This document shows positions 34,301 through 62,937 of a stretch of 64,000 bases of DNA, in pieces. Below the pieces are notes generated by a model that was not told where the DNA came from, ran no database searches, and saw only the letters and a list, made by a program, of their open reading frames with translations. The stretch comes from Amphiscolops sp. MND2022 (taxonomy: Eukaryota), in the NCBI GenBank assembly GCA_964187785.1, contig OZ076409.1, positions 78,556,001 to 78,620,000 on the forward strand, written 5' to 3'. A program made the position numbers and the translations under genes. Position 1 is the stretch's first letter; each line of letters starts with the position of its first letter.

Positions 34301-35136
34301 TGACTTGAGGATTTTATTCTATTTTTTTTCAAGTAAAACTGCCATCTCTTCAAAGATAGTTCCTCCTACCAGTTTTAACGCATACGCTGGCATTTTGCTA
34401 GGGAAAAGTTGTAATTCTAGACCTCTCGAAAGAATAACTTCCCAAAAAGATCAAATATTAATTTTGAAAATGGTGTTCTGAATTCAAGGATTCGTCCCCA
34501 TAAATCAGTTTAAAAGCTAATTCCAATCAGAAACCTTGCTTGTTGTTACGTTTTCCAACAATGACTAAAATCGGAAAAAAACAGCTAGTCAAGGTATATG
34601 TATTTTTCGACTCTGGTGAAGCTCATGGTGAATCATCTTGTTCTACTTTCTAAGTTACGTTTTTCATTACAACACTATTTTCCGTCTTGTCATTTTTTTC
34701 TGATTTGTTCTGCAGAAAAAACCTTGTTATTTGTGAACAATTTCGAAAATAGAAAAACTAAATCCTACCTATTACATTTACATAAATCGAAGAGAAAAGT
34801 AAAATCATATTTTTACTTTGAGTTATTTTTCTCTTAGGACTTCAGTTAAGCATTTAAAACTTTGAACGGAAGAATTTTCCTTGATGGAAATTTTTATAAG
34901 ACGTAGTATTATCCCTGTCATCAGAAAAATAATTTGCAGCTGATAGTGACTCATAGTACTGATAGTTTCATTAATTGTCCATCGTACTATCAAGGTCATG
35001 CAAAAGTAATTTTGAAAAAATGGCCATTTTCATAAAAGTCGAAATTTCACATCAACTAACTTCTCAAACTAAATGCAGGTCAAAAAACCAGAGCAGCTGA
35101 CAAAATACATGCTAGAAAATACCCGAGGTAAAATAC

Positions 35137-35644
35137 TGTAGCAATGCGCTATTTCTAATCTAGTTCATTTTCCCAACAGAGGAAATTGACTCAGAGACAT
35201 AATAATTTCCAAAGCGGAATTATTAGAGCATTTTAATTTCTAAGCGAATAGCAACGCGCTAAAAGGAAATTGGAATTCCCAAATTCCTTTAATGCTCAGC
35301 CAATAGGAAAAAGCCACGCGACAGTAGAACTGTCCTGAGCTGGAAAGAGAAAGACAGGTACCAATTCCAACGCGGAACACTGAGAAAGCAATAACTCTTT
35401 TCTCTTCTCTCAATTTTCCTTCTCTCTTGCTCTCTGAAAATCCCCCAAAATTGAAAGGACAAAGAGTCCCAAAATTGACAGAACATTATAAATTTTACAA
35501 GTCAGCGATTTGCAGGACTTAACAAAATTCTACTTACTGTAAACCTCCAGTTTAAATTTATCTTCCTTTTCGTAACACTTTTTGAGACTTATTGCTTAGG
35601 TTAGAAAGCGAGTACTAAGTAACCAAAACACCGGTTTTACAACA
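35137..35644 (+). repeat. 5' LTR (508 bp)
   Basis: TGTAGC...ACAACA; differs from the 3' LTR at three positions that I could find; CCAAT near 35299 and TATAAA near 35487. Confidence 0.97.
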
Positions 35645-35646
35645 TC

Positions 35647-35660
35647 TGGTGCGACCAGAG
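35647..35660 (+). promoter_or_regulatory. Primer-binding site
   Basis: TGGTGCGACC begins 2 nt after the LTR end; cognate tRNA not determined. Confidence 0.8.
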
Positions 35661-35755
35661 CAAAGAACAATTTCACACCGCAATTTGAACGACCATAAAA
35701 CCGAGCGTACAAAACAAAAATCTTTTCCCCGTGGTGGGTTTTATCTTGCAAAATT

Positions 35756-35879
35756 GAAATATTTAAAGCAAATATTTCTTGAAAAATAACAACTGTTTGT
35801 GCAACATTTAATATCTAAAGCAGATATTAAACAAAAATTCACTTTTTGACAACATTTAGTATCTAAAGCAGATACTAAA
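35756..35879 (+). promoter_or_regulatory. Three covarying stem-loops with an AAAGC loop in the leader (candidate packaging signal)
   Basis: GAAATATTT-AAAGC-AAATATTTC; TTTAATATCT-AAAGC-AGATATTAAA; TTTAGTATCT-AAAGC-AGATACTAAA. Confidence 0.7.
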
Positions 35880-36302
35880 CAAAATTTCATACTCTTGGTA
35901 CTGAGTCTAAACAGTATCCACTTACGCTAGCTTCGGTATTAGCGTGTGCTGGTTCCGTGGAAGAAATTTACTTCTGACACACGAGTGTTCCTTAAATTGC
36001 ACGATCCCAGCGAGGTTTCGCAAGAAAATGGAAAGCCCATATTTCACCTCGCCTGCTGCCTTGGAATTTAACATTCCGTGTTAAGGCTTAAATACGCAGA
36101 AACTGTCCATTTGAAAGGAGCAACAAAACTCCAAAAATTATTTATTTGCGAAAGGATCGAAGAGATTCCTTTGTAAACAATTTTTACATGTGTATTGGAG
36201 CAAAGAAACTTCTACACAAAAATCCAGTCTGTTATTGCCAAAAATAATAATAAAATTGTAAAGTGTGATAAAGGAGCAAAGTAAACGTGATTAAATAGAC
36301 AA

Positions 36303-37406
36303 ATGGCAAACACTGTAGCGTACCCTGACTTAGCATTAGAGAAGTTCATTGGAATCGATTCAAGTGAGGACCCAACTGCTTTTATACGTCTATTAGAAAA
36401 GAAAATCAGCTTTTCTTTAGGAAGTAGGCCTACGGCAAATGAAAATGGCCAACAAACCGTGTATGACGACCGCAGAAAAGCACTTTTCGGATCCGTTCTA
36501 CGCGGACCTGCGGCTGAGTGGTTTGATTCATTAGACGCTGCGTTAGCATGGGAAGAAATGAAAACACAATTCATAAACAGGTTTACGGATGGAAAAATGC
36601 AATATCGGTTCCGAATTGAGGCCGAGAATCTGAAAAGACAGCCTGATGAAAACATAAAAAGTTACATCCACAGAATAAAAACGTTGGTAGACAAAGGCTG
36701 GCCAACACCGTCAAATGCGAATCAAGAGGCTATCACAGCATGCGAAAATCAGAGAATTGGGAAGTACAAAGACTACTTCATAAGAGGCTTAATGCCCCCG
36801 GGTCTTAAACAGAAAGCCCATCAAGCAATGATTGAAGATCCCAACAAATCATGGGACGCTTTACAGGCTCTTATCATAAATAAAGATATGAGTTTAGTTG
36901 TGAGTGCCGAAATGTCCGGCTTGCAACCTTCAAGTTCCCAAACTTCAACAGGGACAATGGACGCCCGTTTCACTAACATAGAGAAAACATTGAATGAAAT
37001 CACCAACATGGTGAAAAATCATCAAATCAATGCTACCTATGATCCGAACAACCCAAAAATGAAACAAGACTTTACTAGATTTTGCAACTGTTGCAAAAAA
37101 TCCGGACACACAATCAAGTACTGTTGGACATTGAAAAAGAAGAAAGAAAACGAGGAAAAACCTCCTCCCCAACCAAAAGAAACATATGCGCAAAACTATC
37201 CAAGTCGACCCAAGTCTCCGAGTAATAACACATCACAATCGGACAATCGGTCCAACGGCCAAAGAGGCAGAAGCAATAGTCCTTATGTTTCAAATGGCTA
37301 CCGAAGCAGAAGTAACAGCTACTCTGGAGCTGTTCGGTTCGAAGCAAAGCCTGACCAGGTGAATTCTTTGTATGACACTCTGCAGTCATGCAATCCTTTA
37401 AACTAA
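36303..37406 (+). CDS. gag: Gag (capsid-like region plus one CCHC knuckle)
   Basis: 367-aa ORF; LRGPAAEWF motif; CNCCKKSGHTIKYC knuckle. Confidence 0.93.
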   Translation: MANTVAYPDLALEKFIGIDSSEDPTAFIRLLEKKISFSLGSRPTANENGQQTVYDDRRKALFGSVLRGPAAEWFDSLDAALAWEEMKTQFINRFTDGKMQYRFRIEAENLKRQPDENIKSYIHRIKTLVDKGWPTPSNANQEAITACENQRIGKYKDYFIRGLMPPGLKQKAHQAMIEDPNKSWDALQALIINKDMSLVVSAEMSGLQPSSSQTSTGTMDARFTNIEKTLNEITNMVKNHQINATYDPNNPKMKQDFTRFCNCCKKSGHTIKYCWTLKKKKENEEKPPPQPKETYAQNYPSRPKSPSNNTSQSDNRSNGQRGRSNSPYVSNGYRSRSNSYSGAVRFEAKPDQVNSLYDTLQSCNPLN

Positions 37407-40400
37407 TCAAGTCTCCGAACCAACAAAGTGAGGAATCAAATGAAACCCCTCACATTCCAACTGCTGGAACGTCCGGCCAACATTTTTATATAGAATTATT
37501 TCAATACGCCGTCGGAGACAAAAATAAAAATAATGGCCTTAGCACTCAATTTCTCATAGATACTGGCGCAACGTGCTCCATTATCAACCGTGAGACATTC
37601 ACTGAAATTAACAAAATTCAGCCTTTAGTTGTAACGCCTCTCGAGAAATCGCCTTTAGCTGCTAATGGACACGCAATGCCCATGAAAGGGAAAACTATTA
37701 TTCAGTCTGCGTTTGACGTAGAATATTCTTGTGTGATCGAACACACTGTTTATGTGTCTGATTCCCCCGAGGCGAGAATGAACATTCTTGGAATGGATTT
37801 TTTGGCAAATTTTGGTGAATTCATTAACTTGAGAAATCCAATGCTAATTTTAACGGTCTTCCCCGGCAAATGTGTTAAACTGTCGCCTTATTTAGACAAG
37901 CCTTTTCCCTACTTCTCCCAGGTTAATTCAGTAGAATTGACTCAAGACATCACAATTGCACCGTATTCGACCCGAGTTTTGAGTTTAATTGCTAGAGATG
38001 AAGATAAACATTTGTTCAAACAGGGAACAAGTTTCCGTTTACACCAAGACATTTTAGATACTGGCATTTACACGTATCACGTGTATTGCTCACAAGACGA
38101 GTCGAAATATCCTTTAATGCTGAACAATCCGAACCCGAATAGTATTACTATTCGTAAAGGAATTCTTGGATACACATTGCTCGATAGCGTCCAAGAGACC
38201 TCGCAATTGATGAGTGTCGTTGACAATGTCGCTTTCATTGAGTATCTCAAAACCTCTGAGTCTCAATGGAACAAGGATTTACACGTTTGTTCGACCGAAC
38301 CGTATATTTATTCCTTAACGGAAATTGATTCACGGAAACAAATGGCCGAAAGCGCTATTTCGCAAAATGAACTGGCTACTGATTTCTCCAATGAGGTGAA
38401 ATCATTACAACCGAAAATGCCCAAAACTGCTTCCGATATTAAAAGGAAACAACTCGACGATGAATTTTACGCCGAGTTTAGTCCCGCCGAACGCAACTTT
38501 TTAGAAAAGTTTGACTTTTCTGAATCCGATATAAATGACCGTGAATTACAACATCTTCTCCGAGTTTTAGTTGAAAACAATGACGTGTTTTCAAAATTTA
38601 CTTATGATGTTGGAAAAATCACACAAACATTTCATGTACAATTGAAGAAAAACGCCGAATTGCGAAAACAAAGGCCCTCAAAAGTCCCTCTGCACTACAG
38701 AGACCGACTTGAAATTCTTCTGAATGAACTGCAACGAGCTGGAATCATTCGAGAAATGGGAAATGATGTGGAAATGGATTCCCTATTCACAAACCCTATC
38801 ATCATTTTACCAAAAGGAGATACCGTGAAGCTTGTGATTGACGCACGTTATCTTAACTCAATCACTGACTTGACTAACTACTCATGGCCCCTTGAACCAG
38901 TACAAATGTTACTGACACGACTTGATGGAGTTTATTACACAACGAGTGATTTAGCTTCCGCCTATAACCAAGTACCCCTCACCGAAGATACGAAGAAGTT
39001 GACAAGCTTTATTGTTGGTGGAAAACAGTACATGTTCGAACGAGGATTCTATGGTCTTTGCGGACTACCAAACTTCTTCAGTCGGATAATGACTATTCAT
39101 TTCGCTGAAATGATAGCCAAGAAACAAGTGATAACATACATTGATGATGTTATCTTACAGGCAAAAACCAAACAAGAAATGTGGAATAATTTGGATTCAT
39201 ACTTCAAGTGCTTGAGATCATCAGGTCTGAAAGCTGCACCGAACAAAACAAAACTGTTCTTGAGGAAAGTTCAGTTTCTTGGACACATTGTTTCCGACAA
39301 AGGAATCCAGCCAGTAGCCAAAAAGGTACAAGATTTGAAAAACCTGAAAAGCCCTGAGAACAAAAGAGATGTAATGCGCATCTTAGGAAGTTTAGGTTTC
39401 TACAGCACCTTCATCAAAAATTTACATGTAGATTCGAAACCTTTCTACGAACTTCTGAGAGATGACACTCCATTCAAATGGACAAAAGAGCATGAGAACT
39501 TGTTCCAAGACATAAAAAATAGAATCAGCGAAGAAACCATCTTAGCTGTACCAAACCCAAAGTATCCGTTCCACATCCATGTCGACTCCTCCAGTATTGG
39601 TACGGGATCAATCTTAATTCAAGATTTTCCTTCCGGGAAACGTATAGTTTCCTTCAATTCGCGAGTCTTTACAAAGGATGAACAAAAGATGTCAACGCTA
39701 CATCGAGAACTGTGCGGAATCATTTCTGCTCTACAAACGTATGAGCATTTCATAATTGGATCTCGGCATCCCATCAAGGTATTCTGTGATCACAAGCCCC
39801 TCCTGTATCTATGGGCACGCAAAGGAAGATTATCTCATAGATTCTTCCGCTACCAAGTGATTATCACTCAGTTCACTAATTTGCAAATCATTTGGACCCC
39901 TGGAAAGAATTTAGCGTTTCCAGATTTGCTAAGCAGAAATGTGTCGTTGAAAGATCTCAACGGGCACCAATTGCTTCACAAAGAAATTCCAAAAGATATA
40001 AAGTTCTTCAGCCAAAGTGGACACGAAGTTCAGTATCTGATAGACCACAACAGCCCTGCTGAAAGCGCCAACGATGATTTCTACCCAATTGTTTGCACTC
40101 ACTTGGGTGAAACAAAGAAACTTCACCTGAAAAATGATGGTACAGATCTTATCTGTACGGTATACGATCCAAACTCTCCGAAAGCGCTCTTTGATGTTTC
40201 TGACTCCTTTCGTGAAGGTAAGGACATCAACATCCGACGTAAATGGCAAACCCCACCAATAGTTGTGGAAGCCGACGTCCATGAAAATCATTATTCAGGG
40301 ATTGACTCTGAAACCGACAATAGTGACAATGAAGCTTCTGACGAAGATCCTCTATTGAACACAGAGGTTGTAAATGCATCTAAAGAAGATGTTCCTTTCA

Positions 40401-42541
40401 TCCTCTCCATTTTTACCATTCAAGACTCACAACAACCATTGAAACTTGTTACCGATAACCTTGATTTAAACAATATTTTGGCAAACCAACAGGATGACCC
40501 AGTCCTGAGCACTGTTAAATCATGGATAATTAAAGGCAAAGTGCCGTCAAAAGATGTCGAGTCAAGACAATGCAAGGGATTACTTGGCTACTCAAATCAA
40601 TTTGAAAAATTGTTCATCGATGAAGAAACCCATCTTGTTTGTAAAACTAGCAAGCATTCATCACGACAAATATGTTTGCCTCGCAACTGTTTCATTGAAG
40701 CTTTCAATGTTGCACACGACCATCGACTTTCAGGACATCCCGGATGTGAAAAGACACTTTTGTCTCTGAAAAGATTTTTCTATTGGCCTGGTATGTATAA
40801 ATGGGTGCGGACTCTAACGAAGAGCTTCCTGATATGCCGAAAAAATAAACAAGTCAGAAAGAATCAAAACACCGCTCCAAATGAAAAATGGGGAGAAGAA
40901 ATTCCTTATCCCTTTCACACTGTTCACATCGACCACAAAGGACCTTTGAATCCCATGAGTGACGGAAAACATCACTGTTTAGTTGTGATTGACGCATTCT
41001 CACGATTCATACAAGTTTACCCAGTCAAGTCGACTGATGCAAGTAATACTATTGAAGCCATGACTTCTTTCATTACTTCATTTGGCATTCCTCAAAAACT
41101 TGTATATGATAGAGGTACGTCGTTCATGAGCACTGATTTCTCAACCTTTCTCTTGGATTTAGGCATAACGCATGCCCCAAGAACTAAATGGTCCCCTTGG
41201 ACTAACGGCAAGGTTGAAATCCAAAACAAACACCTCAGTCGATACTTTCGATGCTATCTTTCCGAAGCAGGAAATAATTGGGCCAAGCTGGCTCCTCAAT
41301 TCGCCTTTGCTCATAACACTTCAGTGAACGCCAGTACAGGAGCAACTCCCTATGAAGTTGTTTTCGGATTTAAACCACAAATTCCGATTTCGTTGAAACT
41401 AGGTCTCGTAAGAGACGACAATGATTTGTGTCAATCCGAATTCTGTCAGTCTTTACCTGACCATTCACACCTGAATAAAGACACGAAACATTCTTGCATC
41501 GACTCCTTACTGACGTCAAAGTGTTCATTGGATTTGTTACACAGAGAAACACAATTCAAAAACATATACAGAAAAGTATATACAAAGGTTCGTAAAGCGA
41601 ATCATCGATCTCTGCCGTACCGAAACAAGTACAAACTTGCTAAACCATTACGTGTTGGACAAAAAGTACTACTCGAAAATCATCAAGTCCCATTCGGGAA
41701 ATCACAAAAACTGTGCGAGCTCCGAAGTGGACCGTACACTGTGACTAAAGTGATCACGAAAGTGAACTACGAAGTCGCGCTCGATTCGGATCCAACGAAG
41801 ATTCATGTCGTTCATCGTAATCATCTCGTTGAATTTTTCCCTCGTAATAATGACTTACCGACATTGTTGTCCAATTACGAAAGGCCTGTCAACGACGACA
41901 GAACCGAACATTTTTACAACGAGTATGCAAAGAATCGACTCTCCGAATTGAACAAACCAATTGAAACGCTTGCTGAACGACAGCACGTACAAGAATACTT
42001 ACCTATATTTCCCGACACACCTGGTCCATCCAGGATGAACACGACTTATAGTTCGCCTGCTAAATGCGGCTCCGCTCATTCGACACCGACTTTCTTAGCG
42101 AGCTCACCCGACTCTGGCATCCCTCAGTCATCTCCTCAGACTCCTATTTCATTTCAAGGAGAATCGCCAGCAATAACTAGTCAGCCAACCACACCTAGTC
42201 CTTTACCCCGCAATATTCCTTCAACTAGTACTGCCGCTGCTCCACGCTCACGAAAAACGGAAACATTCTTAGAGAGTGGTACGGAAAGCCTTATTTCTAA
42301 TATTATTATCATTTCTCTTTTTCTACTCTCTCTCGCCAAGTCATTCCAAACAAATCCTATGCAAAGCGCATTTGTATATCTTTCTACTGTTTCTATCTCT
42401 ATTTATACAAGATGTTTTACTTTATTCTTTTCCTTTTTCCTTTTTCTTGTGCAAGTGATGACTTTGACAATGTGTCAAAGAACTTGTTTGTATCTCATTA
42501 TGATTGCACAAAAATGCAAGACAATCGAATGTACTCCCTGA
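37388..42541 (+). CDS. pol: Pol polyprotein PR-RT-RNase H-IN (true C-terminus uncertain, possibly 42300)
   Basis: LIDTGA protease; DLASAYNQ and YIDD RT; VDSS/RELCG/CDHKPL RNase H; HIDH/YDRG/NGKVE DDE integrase; GPY motif. Confidence 0.96.
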   Translation: MQSFKLIKSPNQQSEESNETPHIPTAGTSGQHFYIELFQYAVGDKNKNNGLSTQFLIDTGATCSIINRETFTEINKIQPLVVTPLEKSPLAANGHAMPMKGKTIIQSAFDVEYSCVIEHTVYVSDSPEARMNILGMDFLANFGEFINLRNPMLILTVFPGKCVKLSPYLDKPFPYFSQVNSVELTQDITIAPYSTRVLSLIARDEDKHLFKQGTSFRLHQDILDTGIYTYHVYCSQDESKYPLMLNNPNPNSITIRKGILGYTLLDSVQETSQLMSVVDNVAFIEYLKTSESQWNKDLHVCSTEPYIYSLTEIDSRKQMAESAISQNELATDFSNEVKSLQPKMPKTASDIKRKQLDDEFYAEFSPAERNFLEKFDFSESDINDRELQHLLRVLVENNDVFSKFTYDVGKITQTFHVQLKKNAELRKQRPSKVPLHYRDRLEILLNELQRAGIIREMGNDVEMDSLFTNPIIILPKGDTVKLVIDARYLNSITDLTNYSWPLEPVQMLLTRLDGVYYTTSDLASAYNQVPLTEDTKKLTSFIVGGKQYMFERGFYGLCGLPNFFSRIMTIHFAEMIAKKQVITYIDDVILQAKTKQEMWNNLDSYFKCLRSSGLKAAPNKTKLFLRKVQFLGHIVSDKGIQPVAKKVQDLKNLKSPENKRDVMRILGSLGFYSTFIKNLHVDSKPFYELLRDDTPFKWTKEHENLFQDIKNRISEETILAVPNPKYPFHIHVDSSSIGTGSILIQDFPSGKRIVSFNSRVFTKDEQKMSTLHRELCGIISALQTYEHFIIGSRHPIKVFCDHKPLLYLWARKGRLSHRFFRYQVIITQFTNLQIIWTPGKNLAFPDLLSRNVSLKDLNGHQLLHKEIPKDIKFFSQSGHEVQYLIDHNSPAESANDDFYPIVCTHLGETKKLHLKNDGTDLICTVYDPNSPKALFDVSDSFREGKDINIRRKWQTPPIVVEADVHENHYSGIDSETDNSDNEASDEDPLLNTEVVNASKEDVPFILSIFTIQDSQQPLKLVTDNLDLNNILANQQDDPVLSTVKSWIIKGKVPSKDVESRQCKGLLGYSNQFEKLFIDEETHLVCKTSKHSSRQICLPRNCFIEAFNVAHDHRLSGHPGCEKTLLSLKRFFYWPGMYKWVRTLTKSFLICRKNKQVRKNQNTAPNEKWGEEIPYPFHTVHIDHKGPLNPMSDGKHHCLVVIDAFSRFIQVYPVKSTDASNTIEAMTSFITSFGIPQKLVYDRGTSFMSTDFSTFLLDLGITHAPRTKWSPWTNGKVEIQNKHLSRYFRCYLSEAGNNWAKLAPQFAFAHNTSVNASTGATPYEVVFGFKPQIPISLKLGLVRDDNDLCQSEFCQSLPDHSHLNKDTKHSCIDSLLTSKCSLDLLHRETQFKNIYRKVYTKVRKANHRSLPYRNKYKLAKPLRVGQKVLLENHQVPFGKSQKLCELRSGPYTVTKVITKVNYEVALDSDPTKIHVVHRNHLVEFFPRNNDLPTLLSNYERPVNDDRTEHFYNEYAKNRLSELNKPIETLAERQHVQEYLPIFPDTPGPSRMNTTYSSPAKCGSAHSTPTFLASSPDSGIPQSSPQTPISFQGESPAITSQPTTPSPLPRNIPSTSTAAAPRSRKTETFLESGTESLISNIIIISLFLLSLAKSFQTNPMQSAFVYLSTVSISIYTRCFTLFFSFFLFLVQVMTLTMCQRTCLYLIMIAQKCKTIECTP
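37397..37403 (+). promoter_or_regulatory. -1 ribosomal frameshift slippery site T TTA AAC
   Basis: In gag phase directly before the TAA stop; pol lies in the -1 frame. Confidence 0.85.
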
Positions 42542-44766
42542 ACAAGGTAGCAGACTGCAAGATCACACCAGAAAACTTGTATGTCACCCCGGCTACTATC
42601 ACACTTTATCAGAAGAACTATCGGACTGATCTGGCAGCAACAATGTGTTCTGTCAAGGCCCATGTCTTCCGCTACAATTGTGGAATGTTTTCGCATTCGT
42701 CCTACGTTCATACTCAAAATAGTATAACGTATGACCTCATCGTTACCCCTGAAATGTGCCGACAGGCATCAAAGACGAACAAAATTAAAATTTCGTCTTT
42801 TAGCGAAAACTTCGATGCCCCAATTGAATTCGATACAAAGAAACAATCGAATTTCAATGATGGACAATCAGTCCGCACAACCATTCATTGCTCAAGTGGT
42901 CAAGTACAGCACTATACCTTCGAGACGTTCATGCAACGTGTGAATTTGACATTCGATTACGGAACCAAAGAGGTTTCCAATCCAAATAAACAAAAATTGC
43001 CATGTCTTTTAATGGAGGGTGGTTGCGAGACCACTACTTTAGACCCATTCGCTTACACGTGGGATACTCCCGAAAACTGCGTGATGACAAAAATCCTCAC
43101 TCAGGAAGCAAAAATGCTCAAGTATCCATTGTCAACGAACAGAAACGAAAACCAATTTTTCCTAATCAGCGAATATAATGAGACTGGCAAAGGAATGAAC
43201 CTCAAAATCAAAGTCTTCCCTGAAAGCTATGAGCTATGTGGGAAACCTGAACGATTGTTCAAAACAAATTTTGAGAGTCTATTTGTGACTTACCAAGGAG
43301 GTTTCGCAATGCCAGGTGGAGAACTACGAACTAAAGAACATGCTTTTAACGCCTACCAATTTTCCATTGACAACTCTAGCCAGGTCTCTTATTCGTCATT
43401 ATCTTTCAGCAAATCAAATGGCCAATGGATTGGTGCACAGCCTTGGCATACCGTCGGCGCGGATGAAATTGATTATGAATTGCACTTGGGAACAAAGTTA
43501 GACTATATAATGTACTTCAATGCGAAGCAATTGAGGCATTCTGAAATGACACTTCTGCAGAGTCAATGTGAACTCGAACGAACTCAAATGTTAACTATTT
43601 TAATGTTAGCAATGCAAAACACAAGACTTGCCGGTTACATGTTAACTGGAAACAGGTCTATGTTCCTTGACACCGATGGAAGTGTCGCATGGTTATACCA
43701 TTGTCCGAAGTTTTTGTCGCCCTTGAAAGTGCTTGATAAATGTTATGATCGAATCCCGATCATGTTTGAACGGTCTACGAAATTTGTAGATCCCATCACC
43801 CGTCAGACTTATGATTTTGCATCCGAGATACCCTGTTTGGGAGATTACACAAATGTGTTTCAACTTGATCTCGAAAATGACAATTCCTGGTACCAACTTT
43901 TACCTGAGCCCATGCCTTTCAATAAACCTTTGTTGTTCAAGCCAACTGAACTTGGACATATTACTCAGTTTCCAACTTTCGACACCAGGCGTGCTGGAAT
44001 GTACACCCCAAATCAAATGAAAAATTTTTGGGATAATGTAATCCACAACTCTGCTTCTGATACATTATTGAAGAAGCTTACTCGGACTATTTTGACTCGA
44101 GGTAACTCAGTTCGAATTTCCGAACCGGGAAACTTGGAACGTCTTTTGAGTCTAAATGATAGACTTCTGTTGGATCACTTGTTGACGCCTTCTTTTTTCG
44201 TCGATAAATTCAAGGAAACTTTTGGCGAATTGGGATATATTATCCAATGTTTAGGAAACTTTTTTGCTTGTTTCCTTTTGGTAAAGTTCGTTATTGATGT
44301 TGTTGTCATTGTCCTCCGAGGACTTGAAATTCGAAAAGTTTCTGGTGCCACTTTTGGTTTTGTCAGAACTATGTTAGGCGCAACTTTTAATTTATTTGTT
44401 CTCTCACTTCAGACTCCAATGTACGAAAATGAGGAAAATAAAAGGATTTCAAATGGTTTCTCGCAGAACCCTGCAGGCAATAGACCTATAGCTGCACCAA
44501 TGTACGAAGAAAATCCGACTCTTTTGTATCCTCAAGTACATCTCTTGAACAATCCGATTGCGATTGGTTCTACTCTTAATGAAAGACGAAGAGCTGAGTC
44601 AAATGTATTAAATCAAACAGGAAATGCTCCTAGTACATTAAATACCTTTTTACAAAATAACGATGGCAATAACAGTTCTGGAAATGCTCCGACTACTGTC
44701 AATGAAAACGCTCCTAGTACCTCAAATAACAACAGTAATGGAAATGCTCCATTACCCCCACCATAA
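42412..44766 (+). CDS. env: Envelope glycoprotein, chuvirus G / class III (gB-like) type
   Basis: 784 aa; N-terminal signal peptide, SHYDC motif, Cys-rich ectodomain, QCELER...AGYML...WLYHC...CYDRIPI...FVDPITR block, transmembrane segment and cytoplasmic tail. Confidence 0.85.
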   Translation: MFYFILFLFPFSCASDDFDNVSKNLFVSHYDCTKMQDNRMYSLNKVADCKITPENLYVTPATITLYQKNYRTDLAATMCSVKAHVFRYNCGMFSHSSYVHTQNSITYDLIVTPEMCRQASKTNKIKISSFSENFDAPIEFDTKKQSNFNDGQSVRTTIHCSSGQVQHYTFETFMQRVNLTFDYGTKEVSNPNKQKLPCLLMEGGCETTTLDPFAYTWDTPENCVMTKILTQEAKMLKYPLSTNRNENQFFLISEYNETGKGMNLKIKVFPESYELCGKPERLFKTNFESLFVTYQGGFAMPGGELRTKEHAFNAYQFSIDNSSQVSYSSLSFSKSNGQWIGAQPWHTVGADEIDYELHLGTKLDYIMYFNAKQLRHSEMTLLQSQCELERTQMLTILMLAMQNTRLAGYMLTGNRSMFLDTDGSVAWLYHCPKFLSPLKVLDKCYDRIPIMFERSTKFVDPITRQTYDFASEIPCLGDYTNVFQLDLENDNSWYQLLPEPMPFNKPLLFKPTELGHITQFPTFDTRRAGMYTPNQMKNFWDNVIHNSASDTLLKKLTRTILTRGNSVRISEPGNLERLLSLNDRLLLDHLLTPSFFVDKFKETFGELGYIIQCLGNFFACFLLVKFVIDVVVIVLRGLEIRKVSGATFGFVRTMLGATFNLFVLSLQTPMYENEENKRISNGFSQNPAGNRPIAAPMYEENPTLLYPQVHLLNNPIAIGSTLNERRRAESNVLNQTGNAPSTLNTFLQNNDGNNSSGNAPTTVNENAPSTSNNNSNGNAPLPPP

Positions 44767-45039
44767 CGTTTAAAAAAAAACGTTTGCTCTTTAGTGAAAT
44801 TTCTCTTACTTAAAAGTGATAAGGCTTCCTGGAATAGATACCACTGTGATTATTGATGTTTTTCTTCTGGTCACAAACATAATGACACAAGCACAAATTG
44901 ACTTACAAACCCTATATAACTCGCTTTCTAAAATTTAGTATAGTCGCCAACTACCAACTACCAGTTATTCCAAGTTATCCTTTGTTGTTCTTTAATTATC
45001 AGCTTAGAATTTAACGACACTTAATTACTCCTACCCACG

Positions 45040-46599
45040 ATGTCTGATGCTATCGACCTATTCGAGCCTGAAGGTTTCATCCCTGATGACCTGCGTCCTT
45101 CTAATGTAACCTTTAGGTCCCGGAAAACAAAACGGGTTAAACCCTGTTTTCAAAAACATCACAACCAGGCTAACAAGCGATTAGCCTCTACCGACCCTGA
45201 GCCAAATTGGCCAAGAAAAGCTACTAAATTCGAAAATAATGTGAATTTCGACCCTAACCGCCTGTCAAAGAGACTCGGTGATGGGAAAATTAAAGGCCCC
45301 TCGTGCGTGTCAATGAGACTCGACGACGGGTTACCCAAAGAAAAAAATTGGTTTCCAAGCCTTAAAGAAAGGCTTGAAATCCAAAAATCCCGCGAAAATA
45401 ATGTGGACACTGACGACCCCAAATTCATCAAATTCCTAAAGTATGGTATACGGAAGGACCATAATGAATGGTTCCTTGCCACTCCTAAAACAGGGATTGA
45501 AATTGTCAACAAAAAGTTGAATTGTTCTATTGTTATTCCCCCCGACAATTGCCCAGCCATAAAAGTTACTCTTCCGAAGGACATGAACCAATGGAGGTTA
45601 AAAGACCGTCTTCCTGAAGAAAGGAAGTATGTAGTTTATAATCATCAACTTGACTCCATGATAAAGGCCCCCTTTGGTGTTATCACCGCGTTCCCTGACG
45701 ATCCAAACCCTCTTTTCAACGATAATACAAGTACAATCAGTTCGTCAGATAGTACATCCTCCTCCAGGGAAGTGTCCGCCGATAATCCCCATATTCCATC
45801 CAATACTAGATCCACAGGCAATGCGACTACACAAACTGGGAATGAAGAGTGGACCGATACACCTGATACCAATCTTACCGCTGCTCTTTGGAAAACCGAA
45901 TTCGCAATTGCCGAATTTGAACAACAAAATCGCAGCCTGAACATTGAACTAGCCAATTTGAAGAATGCTCTCTGCTCTGCCAATCGGTCACGAGCAATGG
46001 CTAAAGAGAGTGCCAATCGAGCTGAATTCAAGTTAGAAATCTCCGAAAGAGTAACATCAGACCTTTTCGATGAGAATAAGGAACTGAAAAGCCAAATTGA
46101 AGAAGCGACCTCCAAAGCGGAGTCACTTCAAAGTGAACTTTTAGAATCAAACAAGACAAACATCCTCCTAAAGGAGAAACTTGATGCCTTCGATGTGGCA
46201 AATAAACGATTCAAGGAAATTCTTGATAAAAAGGACACTAAATTAAAGGACCAAACCGAAATTGACAAGCTGGTCAAACAACTGCAGACAATGAGAGTCG
46301 AAATCGACATTCAACGAGCCGAGGCTATTCAATTGATCCAGGCAGTAGATGCAAAACAGTATGAAAAGCTGGAAAAATGCTTACACGCCCTGCTAACCCA
46401 CGCTGATCACTGGGATTGGCAACAATACGAAAAGTACTCCATTTTTAACGTAAAACGAGGAAATGTCAAAACCCGACTTTCAACAGTCTACTATCCCATT
46501 GCATACAATTTTGACAAAGACCCCGAGTGGAAGAATAAATGTACTCGATTACCCTGGCCCATAAATTTAAAGCAAGTGCCAACTGGAAGGAATAATTGA
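45040..46599 (+). CDS. Accessory ORF4, coiled-coil protein of unknown function
   Basis: Intact 519-aa ATG ORF between env and the 3' LTR; E/K/L-rich heptad region at about aa 285-440. Confidence 0.8.
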   Translation: MSDAIDLFEPEGFIPDDLRPSNVTFRSRKTKRVKPCFQKHHNQANKRLASTDPEPNWPRKATKFENNVNFDPNRLSKRLGDGKIKGPSCVSMRLDDGLPKEKNWFPSLKERLEIQKSRENNVDTDDPKFIKFLKYGIRKDHNEWFLATPKTGIEIVNKKLNCSIVIPPDNCPAIKVTLPKDMNQWRLKDRLPEERKYVVYNHQLDSMIKAPFGVITAFPDDPNPLFNDNTSTISSSDSTSSSREVSADNPHIPSNTRSTGNATTQTGNEEWTDTPDTNLTAALWKTEFAIAEFEQQNRSLNIELANLKNALCSANRSRAMAKESANRAEFKLEISERVTSDLFDENKELKSQIEEATSKAESLQSELLESNKTNILLKEKLDAFDVANKRFKEILDKKDTKLKDQTEIDKLVKQLQTMRVEIDIQRAEAIQLIQAVDAKQYEKLEKCLHALLTHADHWDWQQYEKYSIFNVKRGNVKTRLSTVYYPIAYNFDKDPEWKNKCTRLPWPINLKQVPTGRNN

Positions 46600-46811
46600 A
46601 AGCCCCCTATAAACTGCTCTCCAACCAAAACTGAAACTCTTTTAACTTGATAATTTGCTTAAACTTATTTAACCTTTAAAATTTCTTTATCTTAACGTAA
46701 ACTTTACATAAGTTTTACCCATTTTCCATTATACCCATTTTATACACATTATATTTATTAATTGATTTGGTATTACGACTAATGCAGTCTTCTCTGTCAA
46801 CTGGGGTGAGT

Positions 46812-47318
46812 TGTAGCAATGCGCTATTTCTAATCTAGTTCATTTTCCCAACAGAGGAAATTGACTCAGAGACATAATAATTTCCAAAGCGGAATTATTA
46901 GAGCATTTTAATTTCTAAGCGAATAGCAACGCGCTAAAAGGAAATTGGAATTCCCAAATTCCTTTAATGCTCAGCCAATAGGAAAAAGCCACGCGAAAGT
47001 AGAACTGTCCTGAGCTGGAAAGAGAAAGACAGGTACCAATTCCAACGCGGAACACTGAGAAAGCAACAACTCTTTTCTCTTCTCTCAATTTTCCTTCTCT
47101 CTTGCTCTCTGAAAATCCCCCAAAATTGAAAGGACAAAGAGTCCCAAAATTGACAGAACATTATAAATTTTACAAGTCAGCGATTTGCAGGACTTAACAA
47201 AATTCTACTTACTGTAAACCTCCAGTTTAAATTTATCTTCCTTTTCGTAACACTTTTTGAGACTTATTGCTTAGGTTAGAAAGCGAGTACTAAGTAACCA
47301 AAACACCGGTTTACAACA
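46812..47318 (+). repeat. 3' LTR (507 bp), preceded by a short purine tract GGGGTGAG
   Basis: Near-identical to 35137-35644. Confidence 0.97.
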
Positions 47319-47488
47319 ATACCACAAGGTTAAAAATTCAAACCTATTCAATGAAGCGTGGAACTAACTTATCGATGAGACAGAACTAGACAAACTGATG
47401 GAAACTTGATAATAATTATAAGTTAGTTCCACGCTTCATTGAATAGGTTTGAATTTTTACCGTTGTGGTATTTTACCTCCGGTATTTT
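47319..47488. repeat. Inverted repeat (~70-bp arms) whose left arm was split by the LTR element
   Basis: 35116-35136 joined to 47323-47372 is the near-perfect reverse complement of 47418-47488. Confidence 0.9.
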
Positions 47489-50570: not shown

Positions 50571-52998
50571 AAGAGATTATTGCAAGAGGCAAGAATTTAA
50601 ATTAATATCTTGGGCTTGCAAAGTGAAAATGAACGGGTAGTTTTAATAAACAGTTCGCAACAGTAACGCATCAAAGTATCATCAAGATAATTCTGTCCCC
50701 GGGGCCACCAGTCCCGGTTATATATATTTGAATTTGCATGACACTCAATAAAATGGTGGTCATAATCTAAAAATAGCCTTTAGGGCTTTCTAAATATAGC
50801 TACAATCTATAAATAGCAGGCAACGTCAACATTACATCATGTAGATCAAAGGTCCCTCTTGGCGGCAAATATGGCAGCGGGACCATGAGTCCGTTAGGAC
50901 AAGCAACTGCTTACATGCATACTAAGCAACGTACTACATGTATGAAATACATATTACATGTATGAAATGCTTACTACATGTATAGATAGTAATTTTACAT
51001 ATATTCTAAACTAAATATATTGCGCAAATTACATATGAAGCAACACCATCAAACTAATTCTAAAATATTAAATCAGTCCTTTGAGGGCCAATAGCGCCTT
51101 TTATCAGTTATCAAAAGATTAATCATTACATAACCAGTACTGCTAGGTAGAATTACACTCTCAATTAAAGCGCGGACTCAGTGTCCAATAGACTGGTACA
51201 GCCCAGCGCTTTATTAGCAGGCGGCATATAGCTGTCTAGTCCTTTAATTCTATTAAGCTAGCACGAGTAAAGGTTACATAACACTGCGCTATGATTGGAT
51301 GACGAGTTAGTCGGACTTGCGGACCAAGGCGACAGGCAAGAAAACATTTGAACGCGTTTCCTTTACCTGTACGCCTTGGTGTCCAATTAACTCGTATTAA
51401 TGCATAGAATTACATAATATAACTTGCACAAAATGAAATATATAGAGTTTTACATGACTTTTTAGAGCAACAATAATAGTTTTCCTTGTAAGTTTTCTAA
51501 TTTAATGGAAGGGTGAAGGGTTCTGCTTTCTTGTAACTATGGCAGATTGAGTATGTGTTGCCATCACAGGCGGACGCCTGGGACACTCCCCCTGGAATTA
51601 GCATAAAACAGCCCACCTTCATTCCTTCCAAGAAAGCTAGTCGTCTCGCGTTGAATTGCTCGGCAGATTCCCCTCGGACGGCCGTCTTGTGCAGATAATC
51701 TATGACCGCCTCGTCCTGAATCTGTTCCACAGATTTTCCACATACGAGACAATCTGTGCACCCTGTAATATACGGGTTATCTGCTGCGGTCGGCCCACGG
51801 AAGTGAATACCACCTTCGTGTCGTTGGGAGCTGCTAGAAGTGGCTTCCGCGGTTATCCTCCAGTCGCCCGTAGGATATTTATCGATTGCTGGGGGCGACA
51901 TAGGTGTGTCGACCATCGGGATCAGTTGGCTGCATAAGTTAATTGGGTGGTCATTTCTAAGCCGTGAGTCCCTCGCAATTGGTCCTCTGCCCATTTCCAG
52001 CTCAAAGTACCCAGCGTCGAACATCGGTCCCGGCACATATGCAAGCCTGGGAGTAGTAGCGCGAGTCACTTCTTGCTTTCCTGAAGCTGAGGGGATTTGA
52101 ATTCCTGCTGAAGTCGATGGCAAGTCCAGTTGTCTTTCCACACATTGGGCCAAGAGGGCCATTTCATCGTCATCAGACAGGCTCTCTAAGTCATCCACGG
52201 ACGCCCTGCTTGCGCACTCTATGTCGTCGTCACTAGAGATGTAAATGACACCGTCTCCCGGGGCTGCTCCTTGAAAATCTTCAGGATAATACTCAGGGGA
52301 TTCCGAGTCAAATTGACTTGCAAGGAATTTATTCATTATTGCTTTTTTGGCAATCTTGGAAGTTATTAGTTTTAGGTTTTGAAGTTTGATAAGCAGCTGA
52401 ATTTCGAGATTGAAACTGAAACAATGGCGATTTCTTCCTCCGTCGACTAGCGGGATTTTCTTTTCAGTTTCCCGGGGTTTTGCCCTTCCCGGCTCACTAA
52501 ATCCTCAATAACAAAATTCCTTTTCTTCGGCATCTTTCAACTAGCCGCTCGGTCTTCTTTGAAAATGCCGACTGAGGCTTTGTTGACTTACATCAACTCT
52601 ATCAACACTTCCATATTAAGAGCGTCGCTTCAAGTGTTTATTAACACTCATCAAGCACTTAAAAGTTTCAAGAGGGTGAAGCTATGGCAGACGGCCACGC
52701 CGTCCATCAGCGTTTCTGATCAACCAATAGGAATGCAGCAAAATTTCTCTTGAGTAAAAATGGCTTCCCAAGGTCGTAAATCCATATAAGGAATAATATA
52801 AAATGACCTGAAATTAAATAAAATCCTGGTAAAATCATGAAATATTTAATAAAATGGTAAAGTTTCGAAATAAGATAAATGGAAGAGTGTAGATATCGCT
52901 GGCAGACTCTATCCACATAATAGTGTAAATTGTAAATATCTTGTAAATTTGACACCAAATTGTATAGCCACGAACTCCAACTTTGACATCTTGTCACA
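50021..52998 (-). repeat. Putative ~3-kb 3' LTR
   Basis: Minus strand: purine-rich GAAAAGAGAATTGGCAA (53015-52999), then TGTGAC ... CTTACA; cannot be confirmed without the 5' LTR. Confidence 0.5.
51497..52336 (-). CDS. Accessory ORF (279 aa), acidic N-terminus, SIM-like VIYISSDDD and CxxCxxC cluster
   Basis: Intact GC-richer ATG ORF, sense to pol; minus-strand AATAAA near 51210. Confidence 0.75.
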   Translation of the reverse strand: MNKFLASQFDSESPEYYPEDFQGAAPGDGVIYISSDDDIECASRASVDDLESLSDDDEMALLAQCVERQLDLPSTSAGIQIPSASGKQEVTRATTPRLAYVPGPMFDAGYFELEMGRGPIARDSRLRNDHPINLCSQLIPMVDTPMSPPAIDKYPTGDWRITAEATSSSSQRHEGGIHFRGPTAADNPYITGCTDCLVCGKSVEQIQDEAVIDYLHKTAVRGESAEQFNARRLAFLEGMKVGCFMLIPGGVSQASACDGNTYSICHSYKKAEPFTLPLN

Positions 52999-53610
52999 TT
53001 GCCAATTCTCTTTTCAATTCATTATTTTCAAATTCTTTCTAGTTACTCTTTGTATTATCGTCCAGTATTTAATCATCTCTAGTCTTTTAGTCTTCTAGTC
53101 GTATTTACTCCGTATTCATTTGAAGTAGTCATTTGTAATTTCTTCCGATTACGTCTTTTTGTGGATTTCTTGGGTCATCCTAGGACAATCGACACTGAGT
53201 CCCTTTTGCTAATTCATCTCCAGCAATCTTTCTTGTCCTTCATCAAAGAAGAATTTGTCTTCTCCCTACAACTGCTGCTGTATTGTCACCAGTTCAGCTT
53301 CGTCATCCTCCTCTATTGATCGCTCAGCTTTCAATTCAGTGACCACCAGTCTAACTGTACACAGTACTCCCTTCTCAAGACATCCTTCTTTGCATTCAAA
53401 CAGGTCAGTAGCTTTTCAGGTTTTGTTTCTATTTTAGTATTGAATTAATCTGAGGCTTGATCAGGGCTCTCATTTCATTCACGTACTTCCTGTCCCATAA
53501 CACAAGTGTTCACTTGAGTTCGAAATATCTACTTCCGGAAGATTTTTAATGCGGTAATGGACTCTTTCTCAGGAAGTTATCCGCTTGAGTTTATCTCTTT
53601 CTGTTTAGAC

Positions 53611-56600
53611 ATGTCGTCCGAAGAGCAAAATGATATTGTTCCTGCCACCGCTACTGCATCCATGACTGAAGAAGAAGTTGCCATTCCCGAAGAAGCTGGT
53701 ACCAGTCAGGCCACTTCGATCCCTGTAGACCCTGAGTCCACACAACTAGTGCCGCCAGGAGATAATCCTGATAAGCCTGCTCCGACCCCAAGCCCTTCTA
53801 CGGATGAAAGCATTTCCGCTTACATTGACCGTCAATTGCAGACTTTGGGTTGCCAGGGCCTTGGTCTTGACATCTCCTTCTTGCCTCCTACCACATCTGC
53901 CATTGTAGACAATGTACTAAAGCCAACCGCTGAGAAAGCTTCTGAGTCGGAGCCAATTCCCCAGGTCACGACTGGGTCACAAGACAAGGAGTCTCCTGAG
54001 GCTGAGATCGAGCGGGGCAATGATGCTGTCAGTGAAGCTGGATTTTCCGTCAACAAGGCGGATTACTTCCAAACGGATACCAGCGACGCTGAAGAATTAC
54101 TTGATAGTTCAGGTGCTGAGACCGTCAAGGAACCTCCTTTCTTGATTGCACTGGATGCGCTAAGCTCCACTGGGACTGAGACCCATGAGAATGTTAAGCC
54201 ATCAACCTCGGCTGAGTTACCTGGCACATCTTCCCCGAAGCTCTTCAGTCCTACCAGGCCTTTATCTGCCTCTGCTCGAACGCTCATAAATCAGCATTTC
54301 AATGAGACCAACCCGTGCATCCTCCCGGTAGGCCATGCGACCGTAGCCTTCAATCAGGGGCAAGTCCATTCCATCTTGCGTGCCGTCTCCACGGAAACCA
54401 TTACTTCTTCCCTACACCAAATGAAGAACATGCTGGAAGAAGCGATCCGGGCGGGAATTCGCTCCCAAGGTACTCCTCAAGGATCCGGGAAGCAGCGAAT
54501 CAAGATCTTCCGTAAGCAGAGCGGCAGCCTTGGATCAGGTGCGGAAGACAGTGACGTTGGGACTGAGGGGTACACTAGCGGAGCCCTCAGTTCAGAAGAT
54601 GAGTTTGTCATCAATTCTCAAAGAGCTGGCAAGGATCTGAGCATCAATCCCCCTCCAAGTCCTCCAGATCAAAGTTCGACATCAACACCTGGCCCATCAT
54701 CCGCACAACAAGTCCCTAGTCCAGGATTCTGCTCAACTGACTATGAGCCTCTAGCCACATTGACCACTGACCAAGCTTCTGTCTCAAGTCCACCTCGCAA
54801 ACGTCGTCGGCTTCCAGGACGCACAGGCAGAATAATGAAAGAAGCCTATTTCAAAGGAATTCAGTGGACTCGGACATTCGTCACCGGCCCCCTTGACCCA
54901 GAACACAACAAACATAAGTTCTACTGCCAGATATGTAAGACGAACGTTTCCATTTTCTCAAAAGGAGCACGGGAGATTGTCCGCCATTTCCAGTGTGAGT
55001 CGCATTTCCGCAAAGATCAGCGCTGGAGATATGAGCACCTAAGGAAGAAGGACAAGGTGACTGGCCGGACTGTGTACGAAGTCAGAGGGAAGAAGGGCCA
55101 ATTGTTGACTCCCTTAGAACTTGAGAAAGAGAAGCCTTTCTTCATGCAAGTTCCTTTGGTTGAAACTGGCAGCAGTAACCCCTTCTACGAGGATCATATG
55201 GCTGGCCTGGGCTCCATCGCTGGGCAGGAGGAGATCAGACTGTGCGTCCAAATCTCCATGGTTGCTCTCTTCGCTCCTCGTTGTGGAGATCTAAACGTCC
55301 TTGAGTCGCTATGGTCACAGATTGGCACTGTTACCAACCATCAGAGTCTGTTCTCTCCTTACGATTGGGGCTCCTCCAAACTGACAGTAAGTATTGGCGA
55401 TTTCTAGCCTCAGGGTCCTTTAGCCCTAACGTAGCCCCGATTCATTTTCATCCTGGTTAATTTTGTTTTAGACGATCTTTCATCACATCTTCCTCTGTGG
55501 CATCGCTGACATCGCGTATCAAGTCAGTGTCACGGGTCAGTACTCTCTGGAGTTTGAAATGCGAGGCACCTACAGCTTTGTCTCGATCCGGTTCTGGAAG
55601 GGCGAATCCCTCAATGTCGTCCGTTTGCTACGATACCGGACTGCTTCAGAGCCTGCAGCTGGTTTCCTGTTGGTACTTTCCCGCCTCTTGTCCGTCCTAT
55701 CAACACAACCTCAGATTGTGAGCGTGTCTGGGTGTCCTGCAGAGGTGATTCCTCTTCTTGAACGTTCTTGCCTCTTCCAAAAAGGGATTGAGTACCCTTT
55801 TCGATTTGATGCTCTTTGTCTGCCGGACCTGATGCATGAACGATGGGGCAGCGTGTTTGGCACTATCAGCTTCTTCTCTCAGTTGAAGTTTCTGATTACA
55901 TTCTTGGACGGTTGCGGTGGACAGCTTTGGGCCGCCCTAATGCCAGAATTCGTTAAGGTAAGGTCACTGTCCGTAAGACTGTAGGTCCAGTTTTGAATTG
56001 CCTCCAATAAGCATGTTGATTGTAGGCGATGACTACCTATCACCTGGAAATTGCCGCTGTACCAGCCATATGTTCGGAACTGATTGCGAACTGGAAGTCT
56101 GTGCACCAACATTTGACGAAGATAGCACCACCTCAGGTCCACCAGGGGGTTAAAAACAAGCCCCAAAGCCTCGAGTGGGAAATCATAGCTGATGATTTCT
56201 TCACCATCAAGCTGGAGTTCTTCGCACGAATTGTCCGCGATTGTTAGTATATTGGTTTTCCTCTTGTCTACGGACCTCATGGTCCCAGTTTCTCTTACCA
56301 CTATTTGAGGCTCATGCTAGATATAGTAGATTGACACGCTAGGTCTAATGGTGTCATAGGGACCCTTCAGGATGGTAATGTTTTGTTTTCCAGACACCAA
56401 GAGCTTCGAGAGTCAGTTTGCACAGCGAAGGGATAGTGGCTTCTACACCTTCCGAGAGTTCCATACTTTCATCCGCAAGTTGGCAGGTCGAGCACTACTT
56501 CCCAGACACGTGCCTGATATCCTGGACTGGAAGTCGCTGGGCGATTTGCAAGGACAGAATTGGCGACAACTGTCTAACCGAGATTTCTTGAGTCGCTTGA

Positions 56601-57544
56601 AGCTCAAAGAAAATTTGGATGCCGCATGCCATGCTCGTGTCAGGAGAATTTATAGCGAGAAGCAACTGACGCCTGAAGAGACGGAGACAGCAGCTGAGGC
56701 CATTCGGGACGATTTCGCCACCAAGGCCCGAGGTTACCTCGTCCATCTTTTGAAAGTCTTCCTTGCCGACATTAGCCTGAATGCTGGTATCGTAAGAGGC
56801 CTGGGCAGTTTCGATCCAGTAGCCCTCCTGAGTCTGCCGCTTGAGCAAGCCACATATTGTTTCTCCGCTCTGTACAGATCCTTTAGTTTGCGAGGCTGGT
56901 TAGAGAATTCCCCAGAGACTGATGCCCGAGACGAGTACATCGATTTCGTGGAGTTTTTCCGCCAAGCCAACTCTGGAGTCAAGGATACCCCAGAGGTCTT
57001 CACCGACATGGTAGCCTTTCTGATTGGTATGCCTGAATTGAAGTTGCGGAAACATCTGTTTTACATCTTCCAGTTGAGTTGTCTGTGCCTGACTTCTAAG
57101 TTGCCAGAGCTCCCAGCCATCAAATTCTCTGGAGTTGATTGTAATGATCCCCGAAGTAGACTTTTCGATGTCATCATGCCTGCACAGTCTTACCTAGCTA
57201 ATGTGGCAAATTCAGTGGCTGTGTGCACTACAGAAGCTTCCCTGGGTACCTTCAAAGATCTGGAATTCCGATTCAGTATTGGCAACGTCCCAGGAGACCC
57301 TTGGTCACACGTAGACAGTTTCGGCAAGGCTAATTTGCATAAAACCTTAATCGCAGTCTACAAAGCTCTGGGCAGGAGTGTCCGTCCTGACATCGAGTCC
57401 GCTTCCAATTCCTCGTCCAAAGAAGGGGGGAAACAACGTAAGCTGTCCCCTGGTAAAGGCAAGAAAGTTGGCTTTCGGGCAGCTGGTGAAACTGAAGCCG
57501 CAAAGTCCAGTGATGCGAACGCTCCTGGAACTTCTAAATCTTAA
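53611..57544 (+). CDS. Spliced antisense gene, ~1209 aa; BED-like C2H2 zinc finger, probably hAT-transposase-derived; exons 53611-55386, 55472-55957, 56026-56242, 56394-57544
   Basis: Three GT-AG introns with matching phases 0, 0 and 1 join four ORF-track fragments into one 3630-nt frame; FYCQICKTNVS...RHFQCESH finger; PPRKRRR NLS; AATAAA at 57722 and 57750. Confidence 0.87.
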
Positions 57545-62935: not shown

Positions 62936-62937
62936 AA

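Follow-up and report, generated by a model that had tools for sequence, protein, structure and literature searches.

A recently inserted Ty3/gypsy element with a predicted class III envelope protein and a constrained fourth gene in the genome of Amphiscolops

Background

What does a retrotransposon do with an intact envelope gene of viral type, and with yet another gene placed behind it? This question is raised by a 64,000-nucleotide (nt) stretch of the genome of Amphiscolops sp. MND2022 (GenBank assembly GCA_964187785.1, contig OZ076409.1, positions 78,556,001 to 78,620,000 of the forward strand; hereinafter the window, to which the positions given below refer), in which an original prediction, made from the sequence alone, had noticed a Gypsy element with an envelope (env) gene of the chuvirus or herpesvirus gB type. 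Here we show that this is a 12.2-kb Ty3/gypsy element, at positions 35,137-47,318, complete with two long terminal repeats (LTRs), and that it carries, in addition to gag, pol and env, a fourth gene, open reading frame 4 (ORF4), which went unremarked in the original prediction, as did two lesions in the pol gene of this copy. Our preferred interpretation, to which we assign a probability of about 0.7, is that the element is a recently inserted four-gene provirus of the errantivirus type, in which a class III Env would mediate the spread of particles from cell to cell and ORF4 would be a host-facing accessory protein.

Results

The env gene (positions 42,412-44,766, plus strand) encodes, as predicted, an uninterrupted protein of 784 amino acids (aa), from the ATG at 42,412 to the stop codon that ends at 44,766, and matches the Pfam family Monjiviricetes_fusion (PF24664) with an E-value of 6.5e-41 and a score of 140 bits, the cut-off being 27. 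The protein contains 17 cysteines, 9 N-glycosylation sequons, one strong transmembrane (TM) stretch at approximately residues 606-641 (19-aa windows starting at 606-623, with a Kyte-Doolittle peak of 2.83) and a low-complexity tail with a YPxV motif. The N-terminus is hydrophobic as well (best 9-aa Kyte-Doolittle mean 2.66, at residue 1), so that, of the domain layout originally proposed, the cysteine-rich ectodomain and the TM segment are present and the signal peptide is a candidate suggested by hydrophobicity. The motifs previously taken as signs of the chuvirus type were located as YDC (residue 30), CELER (residue 386) and CYDRIP (residue 444) and are largely conserved; likewise, in an alignment of 82 sequences, 14 ectodomain cysteines, all downstream of the leader, are retained in 90-99% of the sequences that have a residue at the respective position. 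Among the homologs of at least 680 aa, 36 of 37 possess the C-terminal TM segment, and the tails of 26 of the 36 long, TM-bearing homologs contain a YPx[ILV] motif, compared with 1.9 expected from shuffled sequences, the homologs being related and, hence, not independent. This motif may be a sorting or late-domain-like signal. The first candidate fusion loop (C-G-M-F-S-H) is partly hydrophobic, at residues 91-93.

The structure of residues 20-683 was modeled as a monomer with AlphaFold2 from 82 sequences (mean pLDDT 75, pTM 0.45). The top Foldseek matches of this model among the predicted viral structures of BFVD are the glycoproteins (G) of chuviruses, xinmoviruses and qinviruses (E-values from 1e-31 to 1e-27, at 13-19% identity), and all 41 listed matches in the PDB are herpesvirus gB structures (best E-value 1.3e-11). 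VIA-align also places gB at ranks 1-4 (domain IV of pseudorabies virus gB with Z 8.1 and a root-mean-square deviation of 4.8 over 157 residues), followed by Chandipura G and Thogoto GP with Z 5.8. A comparison of the env profile with PDB chains at the sequence level produced a single match with an E-value of 0.56 and nothing useful, so the class III assignment rests on Pfam and on the comparison of folds. These approaches concur, in line with the original prediction, and on the strength of the model the Env ectodomain is a class III fusogen fold similar to chuvirus G and herpesvirus gB. Neither a class I (F-type) fusogen nor a cellular protein emerged as the best structural match and, with the furin consensus R-x-[KR]-R absent from the 784-aa protein and the top fold matches all in class III, the modeled Env is not of the F type.

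The pol gene, in agreement with what had been proposed, is of the Gypsy type. Among solved structures, the reverse transcriptase (RT) and RNase H (RH) region is closest in sequence to Ty3 RT/RH and to Ty3-G Gag-Pol (E-values 3e-37 and 1e-36), with foamy virus behind, and the Pfam matches of pol include Integrase_H2C2 and a Tf2-type SH3 tail. No BEL-type Pfam family is found among the 14 matches of pol and the single match of gag at E-values up to 1. The features of the Ty3/gypsy group (Metaviridae) that were examined are present, namely, TG...CA LTRs, a short target-site duplication (TSD), a primer-binding site (PBS), a polypurine tract (PPT) and the order protease (PR)-RT-RNase H-integrase (IN) within pol. 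These results bear on the possibility that env was recently captured from a chuvirus or a BEL/Pao element, so that the element would be a young chimera. Such an origin would agree with the chuvirus-like G proteins being the closest predicted viral structures and with the published finding of chuvirus-like glycoproteins on mosquito BEL/Pao elements (PMC7642597). However, every listed viral G is only 10-19% identical to this env, the RT is Ty3-like, and env occupies the same position in several families of this genome in which it is only 36-38% identical to the window env; moreover, a scan of viral contigs with the env alignment returned 49 pattern matches, of which none was confirmed as a relative. 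We therefore consider a recent capture very improbable.

The insertion itself appears to be young. The 5' LTR (35,137-35,644, plus strand; 508 nt, TG...CA) and the 3' LTR (46,812-47,318, plus strand; 507 nt) differ by 2 substitutions and 1 single-base indel over 507 aligned nt, which accounts for the approximately three differences noticed before, and the element is flanked by two copies of the target-site duplication ATAC (35,133-35,136 and 47,319-47,322). Under assumed rates of 2e-9 to 1e-8 substitutions per site per year, which may not be those of the host, the age of the insertion would be about 0.2-1 million years, an estimate that rests on two LTR sites. A pair of 55-nt inverted repeats, 96% complementary and separated by a 45-nt spacer, extends over 47,318-47,472, starting at the 3' TSD; the apparent insertion site is the margin of a small palindromic element.

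The lineage to which this copy belongs is numerous. A search of the genome detected at least 126 env matches (125 of the 7,049 candidates were scored), and the 20 closest siblings that were fetched include 15 whose near-full LTR pairs differ by 0-5 substitutions and 15 that are flanked by a 4-bp TSD, so that the recent activity originally proposed for the lineage is borne out by many near-identical copies and young LTR pairs. The 5' LTR of 5 of these 20 siblings starts with TA rather than TG. Full-length open frames are found for env in 10 of the 20 siblings, for ORF4 in 9 and for pol in 5. In seven comparisons between siblings, the ratio of nonsynonymous to synonymous substitution rates (dN/dS) of env is 0.09-0.30 at dS of 0.03-0.10 and, as judged from such codon comparisons, all four genes show purifying selection. 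A search for RNA sequences containing env and ORF4 listed none, a result that does not bear on expression.

ORF4 (45,040-46,599, plus strand), which lies between env and the 3' LTR, encodes a protein of 519 aa. In the model of this protein, a small N-terminal domain (approximately residues 95-220) is followed by a Ser/Thr-rich linker, a long coiled coil (277-466) and a conserved C-terminal segment, with roughly half of the model being of low confidence. Pfam, PDB and Atlas searches yielded no assignment (best Atlas score 0.86, a low recognition), and Foldseek gave no match at an E-value of 0.001 or better; weak matches to integrase and Cas1 were not trusted. Among the 267 matches obtained in a search of representative sequences, those listed look like fragments of the ORF4 family itself. 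The lack of a family or fold, together with the low-confidence half of the model, might be taken to mean that ORF4 is a functionless passenger, but this is hardly credible and is largely refuted by the codon test: in comparisons with five copies of a related subfamily (B), dN/dS of ORF4 is 0.05-0.07 at dS of 1.03-1.32. Furthermore, the ORF4 C-terminus is found at most 4 kb downstream in all 39 env loci with at least 60% identity and in none of the 86 more distant loci (125 of 126 env matches and 65 of 76 ORF4 matches were used, with duplicates removed), and full-length homologs exist at 30-36% identity. The low dN/dS, the linkage to env and the distant homologs together indicate that ORF4 is a real, constrained gene.

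The comparison with subfamily B is also informative with regard to the history of the element. Most of pol and env are 94-99.8% identical between subfamily B and the window element, compared with 80-86% for ORF4, 84% for the LTR and approximately 91% for the 5' leader and the gag N-terminus. The ends and ORF4, being far more diverged than pol and env, apparently had a different history, which points to recombination between subfamilies. (The 5' leader contains, at 35,802-35,889, two 40-nt direct repeats that are 48 nt apart.) The joint divergence of ORF4 with the LTRs, the leader and the gag N-terminus suggests work together with cis-acting ends and thus fits the idea that, instead of modulating host signaling, ORF4 assists the particle as a structural or replication cofactor, for instance, in RNA packaging, as an LTR-specific trans-activator or as a matrix-like linker from the Env tail to Gag; that Pfam, Atlas and Foldseek found no host-like domain in ORF4 is in the same vein. 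However, ORF4 adjoins the 3' LTR, so that a single recombination event moves both without any functional coupling, and the equivalent slot of sister families carries a host-like domain, as described below. On balance, we regard a cofactor role as possible but doubtful and prefer a host-facing role for ORF4.

The sister families are giants. In a sample of eight loci with env 36-38% identical to that of the window (labels within L045-L060 and L067-L074), the elements span approximately 17.7-19.1 kb, and LTRs were found in 7 of the 8, with pairs 98-99.9% identical, the bounds being approximate given internal repeats. In the env tree, the window element and a related family, here called the 63% family, are separated from the giant families with a support of 100/100; the RT tree of the local families is poorly resolved, with 1 of 10 inner branches starred. 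In the giants, env is followed by a short ORF, ORF4a, and then by an ORF that combines a helical N-terminal part with a TRAF/meprin MATH domain. The MATH domain scores above the Pfam cut-off in all eight loci (in one, the ORF is split by a stop codon), and its best PDB matches are TRAF5, then TRAF1 and TRAF4. A host derivation of this domain is likely. No RING domain was detected in these proteins. A PAM2-like motif, LNPxAxxFxP, precedes the coiled coil and the MATH domain in 4 of the 7 loci checked (L046, L048, L056 and L058); it is below the cut-off of the Pfam PAM2 family and hints at a contact with poly(A)-binding protein. The TRAF/MATH ORFs are constrained, with dN/dS of 0.03-0.24 where dS is unsaturated. 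The association with env extends beyond the sample: a genome search with PF21355 gave 440 candidates, all 150 of those scored exceeding the cut-off, and a TRAF match was located downstream in at least 28 of 32 env loci at 44-45% identity, a count for which 33 of the 150 scored matches, chosen by position, were used. Only 1 of 54 env loci at 46-48% identity is represented in the scored TRAF list, yet all 5 sampled loci of this range have the domain.

The giants differ from the window element upstream of env as well, in that the pol-env spacer of 2.7-4.3 kb is filled by 2-3 small conserved ORFs of 110-185 aa, some of them tandem paralogs (in the coordinates of the respective loci, L045:6625-7395, L047:6863-7606, L049:5636-6849, L053:5549-7340 and L055:6788-7546), none with a Pfam match. 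With respect to the region behind env, the ORF4 profile matches 6 of the 8 sister loci with E-values from 4e-9 to 0.01 in small target sets, and hhalign connects ORF4 and ORF4a with an E-value of 6e-4 and a probability of 28% directly, or 4.6e-5 and 68% via the 63% family. Homology between ORF4a and the N-terminal domain of ORF4 is, thus, probable. An hhalign probability of 99% for the same pair was discarded, the template alignment having contained an ORF4 fragment. The ORF4a domain itself has no assignment in Atlas (best score 0.75), and the ORF4 homolog of the 63% family has no MATH domain.

The remaining features of the element are as follows. The gag gene (36,303-37,406, plus strand; 367 aa) matches Retrotrans_gag (PF03732) with an E-value of 2.7e-6. 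The slippery heptamer T TTA AAC (37,397-37,403, plus strand) lies immediately 5' of the gag stop codon, and the open frame of pol (37,376-42,541, plus strand), which encodes PR-RT-RNase H-IN and an SH3-like C-terminal domain, is in the -1 frame, from which we infer -1 frameshifting. The PBS (35,647-35,658, plus strand) matches a called tRNA-Met over 11 nt and an uncalled tRNA-Met-like copy over 12 nt; tRNA-Val and tRNA-Leu variants in the genome likewise match 11 nt, so that the match is not unique, and the primer is most plausibly elongator tRNA-Met. An initial assignment to tRNA-Val was dropped. A purine-rich, PPT-like tract (46,801-46,811, plus strand) adjoins the 3' LTR, with a similar tract in sister families.

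The window also contains an unrelated second Gypsy element (57,965-62,950, minus strand), with an RT 25% identical and a dUTPase-like domain in pol; ORFs at 51,497-52,504 (minus strand), 53,518-55,407 (plus strand) and 56,360-57,544 (plus strand) accompany it, antisense ORFs being located downstream of pol and one containing a weak zinc-finger match.

Discussion

The combination of a Gypsy pol with a chuvirus-type env, which the original prediction implied to be new, has already been published. A catalog of 1,512 env-bearing Ty3/gypsy elements (Chary and Hayashi, eLife 2026, PMC13524379) describes gB-type env on Ty3/gypsy pol as being as widespread across animals as the F type and reports that the Chuviridae-like glycoprotein known from BEL/Pao elements of mosquitoes occurs beside gypsy pol, too. 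The gB-type errantiviruses of that study resemble the window element in the gag-pol-env order, the LTRs, the tRNA PBS and the many near-identical copies, and their class III Env, with a leader, an ectodomain, a TM segment and conserved cysteines, similarly does not require a furin site. The difference is the fourth gene: a word search of the main text finds no description of such a gene (a longer version of the text has the word 'accessory' twice). In addition, the 10-mer of the window PBS occurs in no row of the table of 1,512 elements, in which cells of more than 400 characters are shortened, and the length and the pol-env spacer of the sister families exceed some of the prefilters of the study. 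Judging by the sequence features examined, the element belongs to the gB-type errantiviruses, and the accessory slot is its new part.

Other known systems share separate aspects of this organization. The mosquito BEL/Pao elements with a Chuviridae-like glycoprotein (PMC7642597, PMC10084718) have an Env of the same PF24664-type, chuvirus-like fold class, but the pol of the window element is of the Ty3/gypsy and not the BEL/Pao type. The giant Gypsy elements of planarians, Burro and GYPSM1, are, like the sister families, large and env-bearing and contain accessory domains including MATH_TRAF_C, which has been reported in Burro (PMC6431247). In Burro, however, env is related to the gypsy F type and lies in frame within an ORF1 of approximately 5,000 aa, whereas here env is of class III and separate; the Burro MATH domain is inside the polyprotein or upstream, whereas the MATH gene of the sister families comes after env and the window element has none. 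The LTR elements of bdelloid rotifers have, 3' of pol, accessory ORFs that encode coiled-coil proteins or enzymes (PMC5408684), but there the extra ORF replaces env in the ORF3 position, whereas here the accessory gene follows an intact class III env; the single canonical env among the rotifer elements is a class I F protein. The Drosophila errantiviruses gypsy and ZAM (summarized in PMC13524379) share the three-ORF core and are the model for infection of the germ line from the soma, but have a class I, F-type Env with a furin site and a fusion peptide and are not known to carry a fourth gene. Beyond the Burro and rotifer precedents, we found no report of an accessory gene, be it a TRAF/MATH gene or ORF4, behind a class III env in the literature covered, most subscription papers and Repbase being outside this coverage.

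Under the preferred interpretation, Gag-Pol would be produced by -1 frameshifting at U-UUA-AAC and reverse transcription would be primed by a tRNA, likely the elongator tRNA-Met, and env and ORF4 would be translated from spliced subgenomic RNAs; inspection by eye reveals a pyrimidine tract and an AG just upstream of both start codons. Trimers of Env, held by the TM segment and sorted via the YPx[ILV] motif of the tail, would let particles fuse into neighboring cells, probably of the germ line, in the way that the unrelated F-type Env serves Drosophila errantiviruses. Finally, ORF4 would oligomerize through its coiled coil and might be an adaptor that engages a host pathway, a role proposed by analogy with the RING-less coiled-coil and TRAF/MATH protein of the sister families, a predicted signaling decoy that occupies the same slot.

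Several observations weigh against this interpretation. The VIA-align Z-scores of 8.5 and 8.1 barely exceed the range that the tool calls ambiguous, and with every class III structure the global TM-score is low (0.14-0.28, the pTM of the model being 0.45); a rearrangement of domains would fit these values, yet there is no clean superposition. The present copy contains two private lesions in pol. One, a short deletion close to the 3' end of the gene that is absent from all 20 siblings, extends the pol frame by approximately 77 codons, across the env start. In the other, the zinc-binding motif of the integrase is incomplete, although it is complete in all 18 siblings with a readable motif (in 2 of the 20, it was not found). 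Given these lesions, this copy is probably not self-sufficient, even though env and ORF4 are open, and it probably relies on siblings for integrase. The splice acceptors were recognized by eye only, that of env being AAG rather than YAG. The adaptor role is affected by the absence of an assignable fold in ORF4 (mean pLDDT 56 and no Foldseek match at an E-value of 0.001 or better), by the absence of a Pfam MATH/TRAF-C match in the ORF4 of the window and by the moderate strength of the link between ORF4 and ORF4a, a profile of ORF4a alone scoring 7.1 bits on the window ORF4 compared with 7.8 bits for shuffled sequences. Further, the second candidate fusion loop is mostly polar, so that loop 1 alone is hydrophobic.

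The polar second loop would also fit an Env that is kept for a purpose other than entry, such as fusion between cells, receptor blocking among rival families or intracellular trafficking, with the element copying itself within germ cells as an ordinary LTR retrotransposon. The entry mechanism of gB-type errantiviruses is itself described as unsettled, herpesvirus gB requires partner glycoproteins, and none of the elements that pair a Gypsy pol with a gB-type env is reported to be infectious (PMC13524379). Against a non-entry function, the full-length ectodomain, the TM segment and the 14 cysteines are conserved down to homologs of approximately 33% identity, and the purifying selection operates in mobile copies at many loci rather than at one domesticated locus. 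We consider a non-entry Env unlikely and retain the view that Env serves the spread of particles. Because the family is young and numerous and its env is under selection, it is a good system in which to ask if a gB-like protein can fuse membranes on its own, in the absence of the partners that herpesviruses need.

Tentatively, the entire clade could be viewed as an invertebrate counterpart of the complex retroviruses. Its members would be infectious Gypsy elements, enveloped by class III proteins and endowed with a standing set of exchangeable accessory genes, in which a clade-specific small domain behind env would be followed either by the ORF4 coiled coil or by a captured RING-less TRAF protein, sometimes with PAM2, that would act as a decoy against innate-immune or death signaling of the host, and to which the members of 18-19 kb would add small conserved pre-env ORFs. 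This proposal is speculative, and we would sooner doubt than endorse it in its full extent. What is new is the accessory slot, with a strongly selected gene behind env and, in the giant relatives, a TRAF-domain gene in that place. The slot suggests that enveloped retroelements of invertebrates evolved accessory genes in the manner of the complex retroviruses of vertebrates, and it makes the hypothesis of a conflict with the host directly testable.

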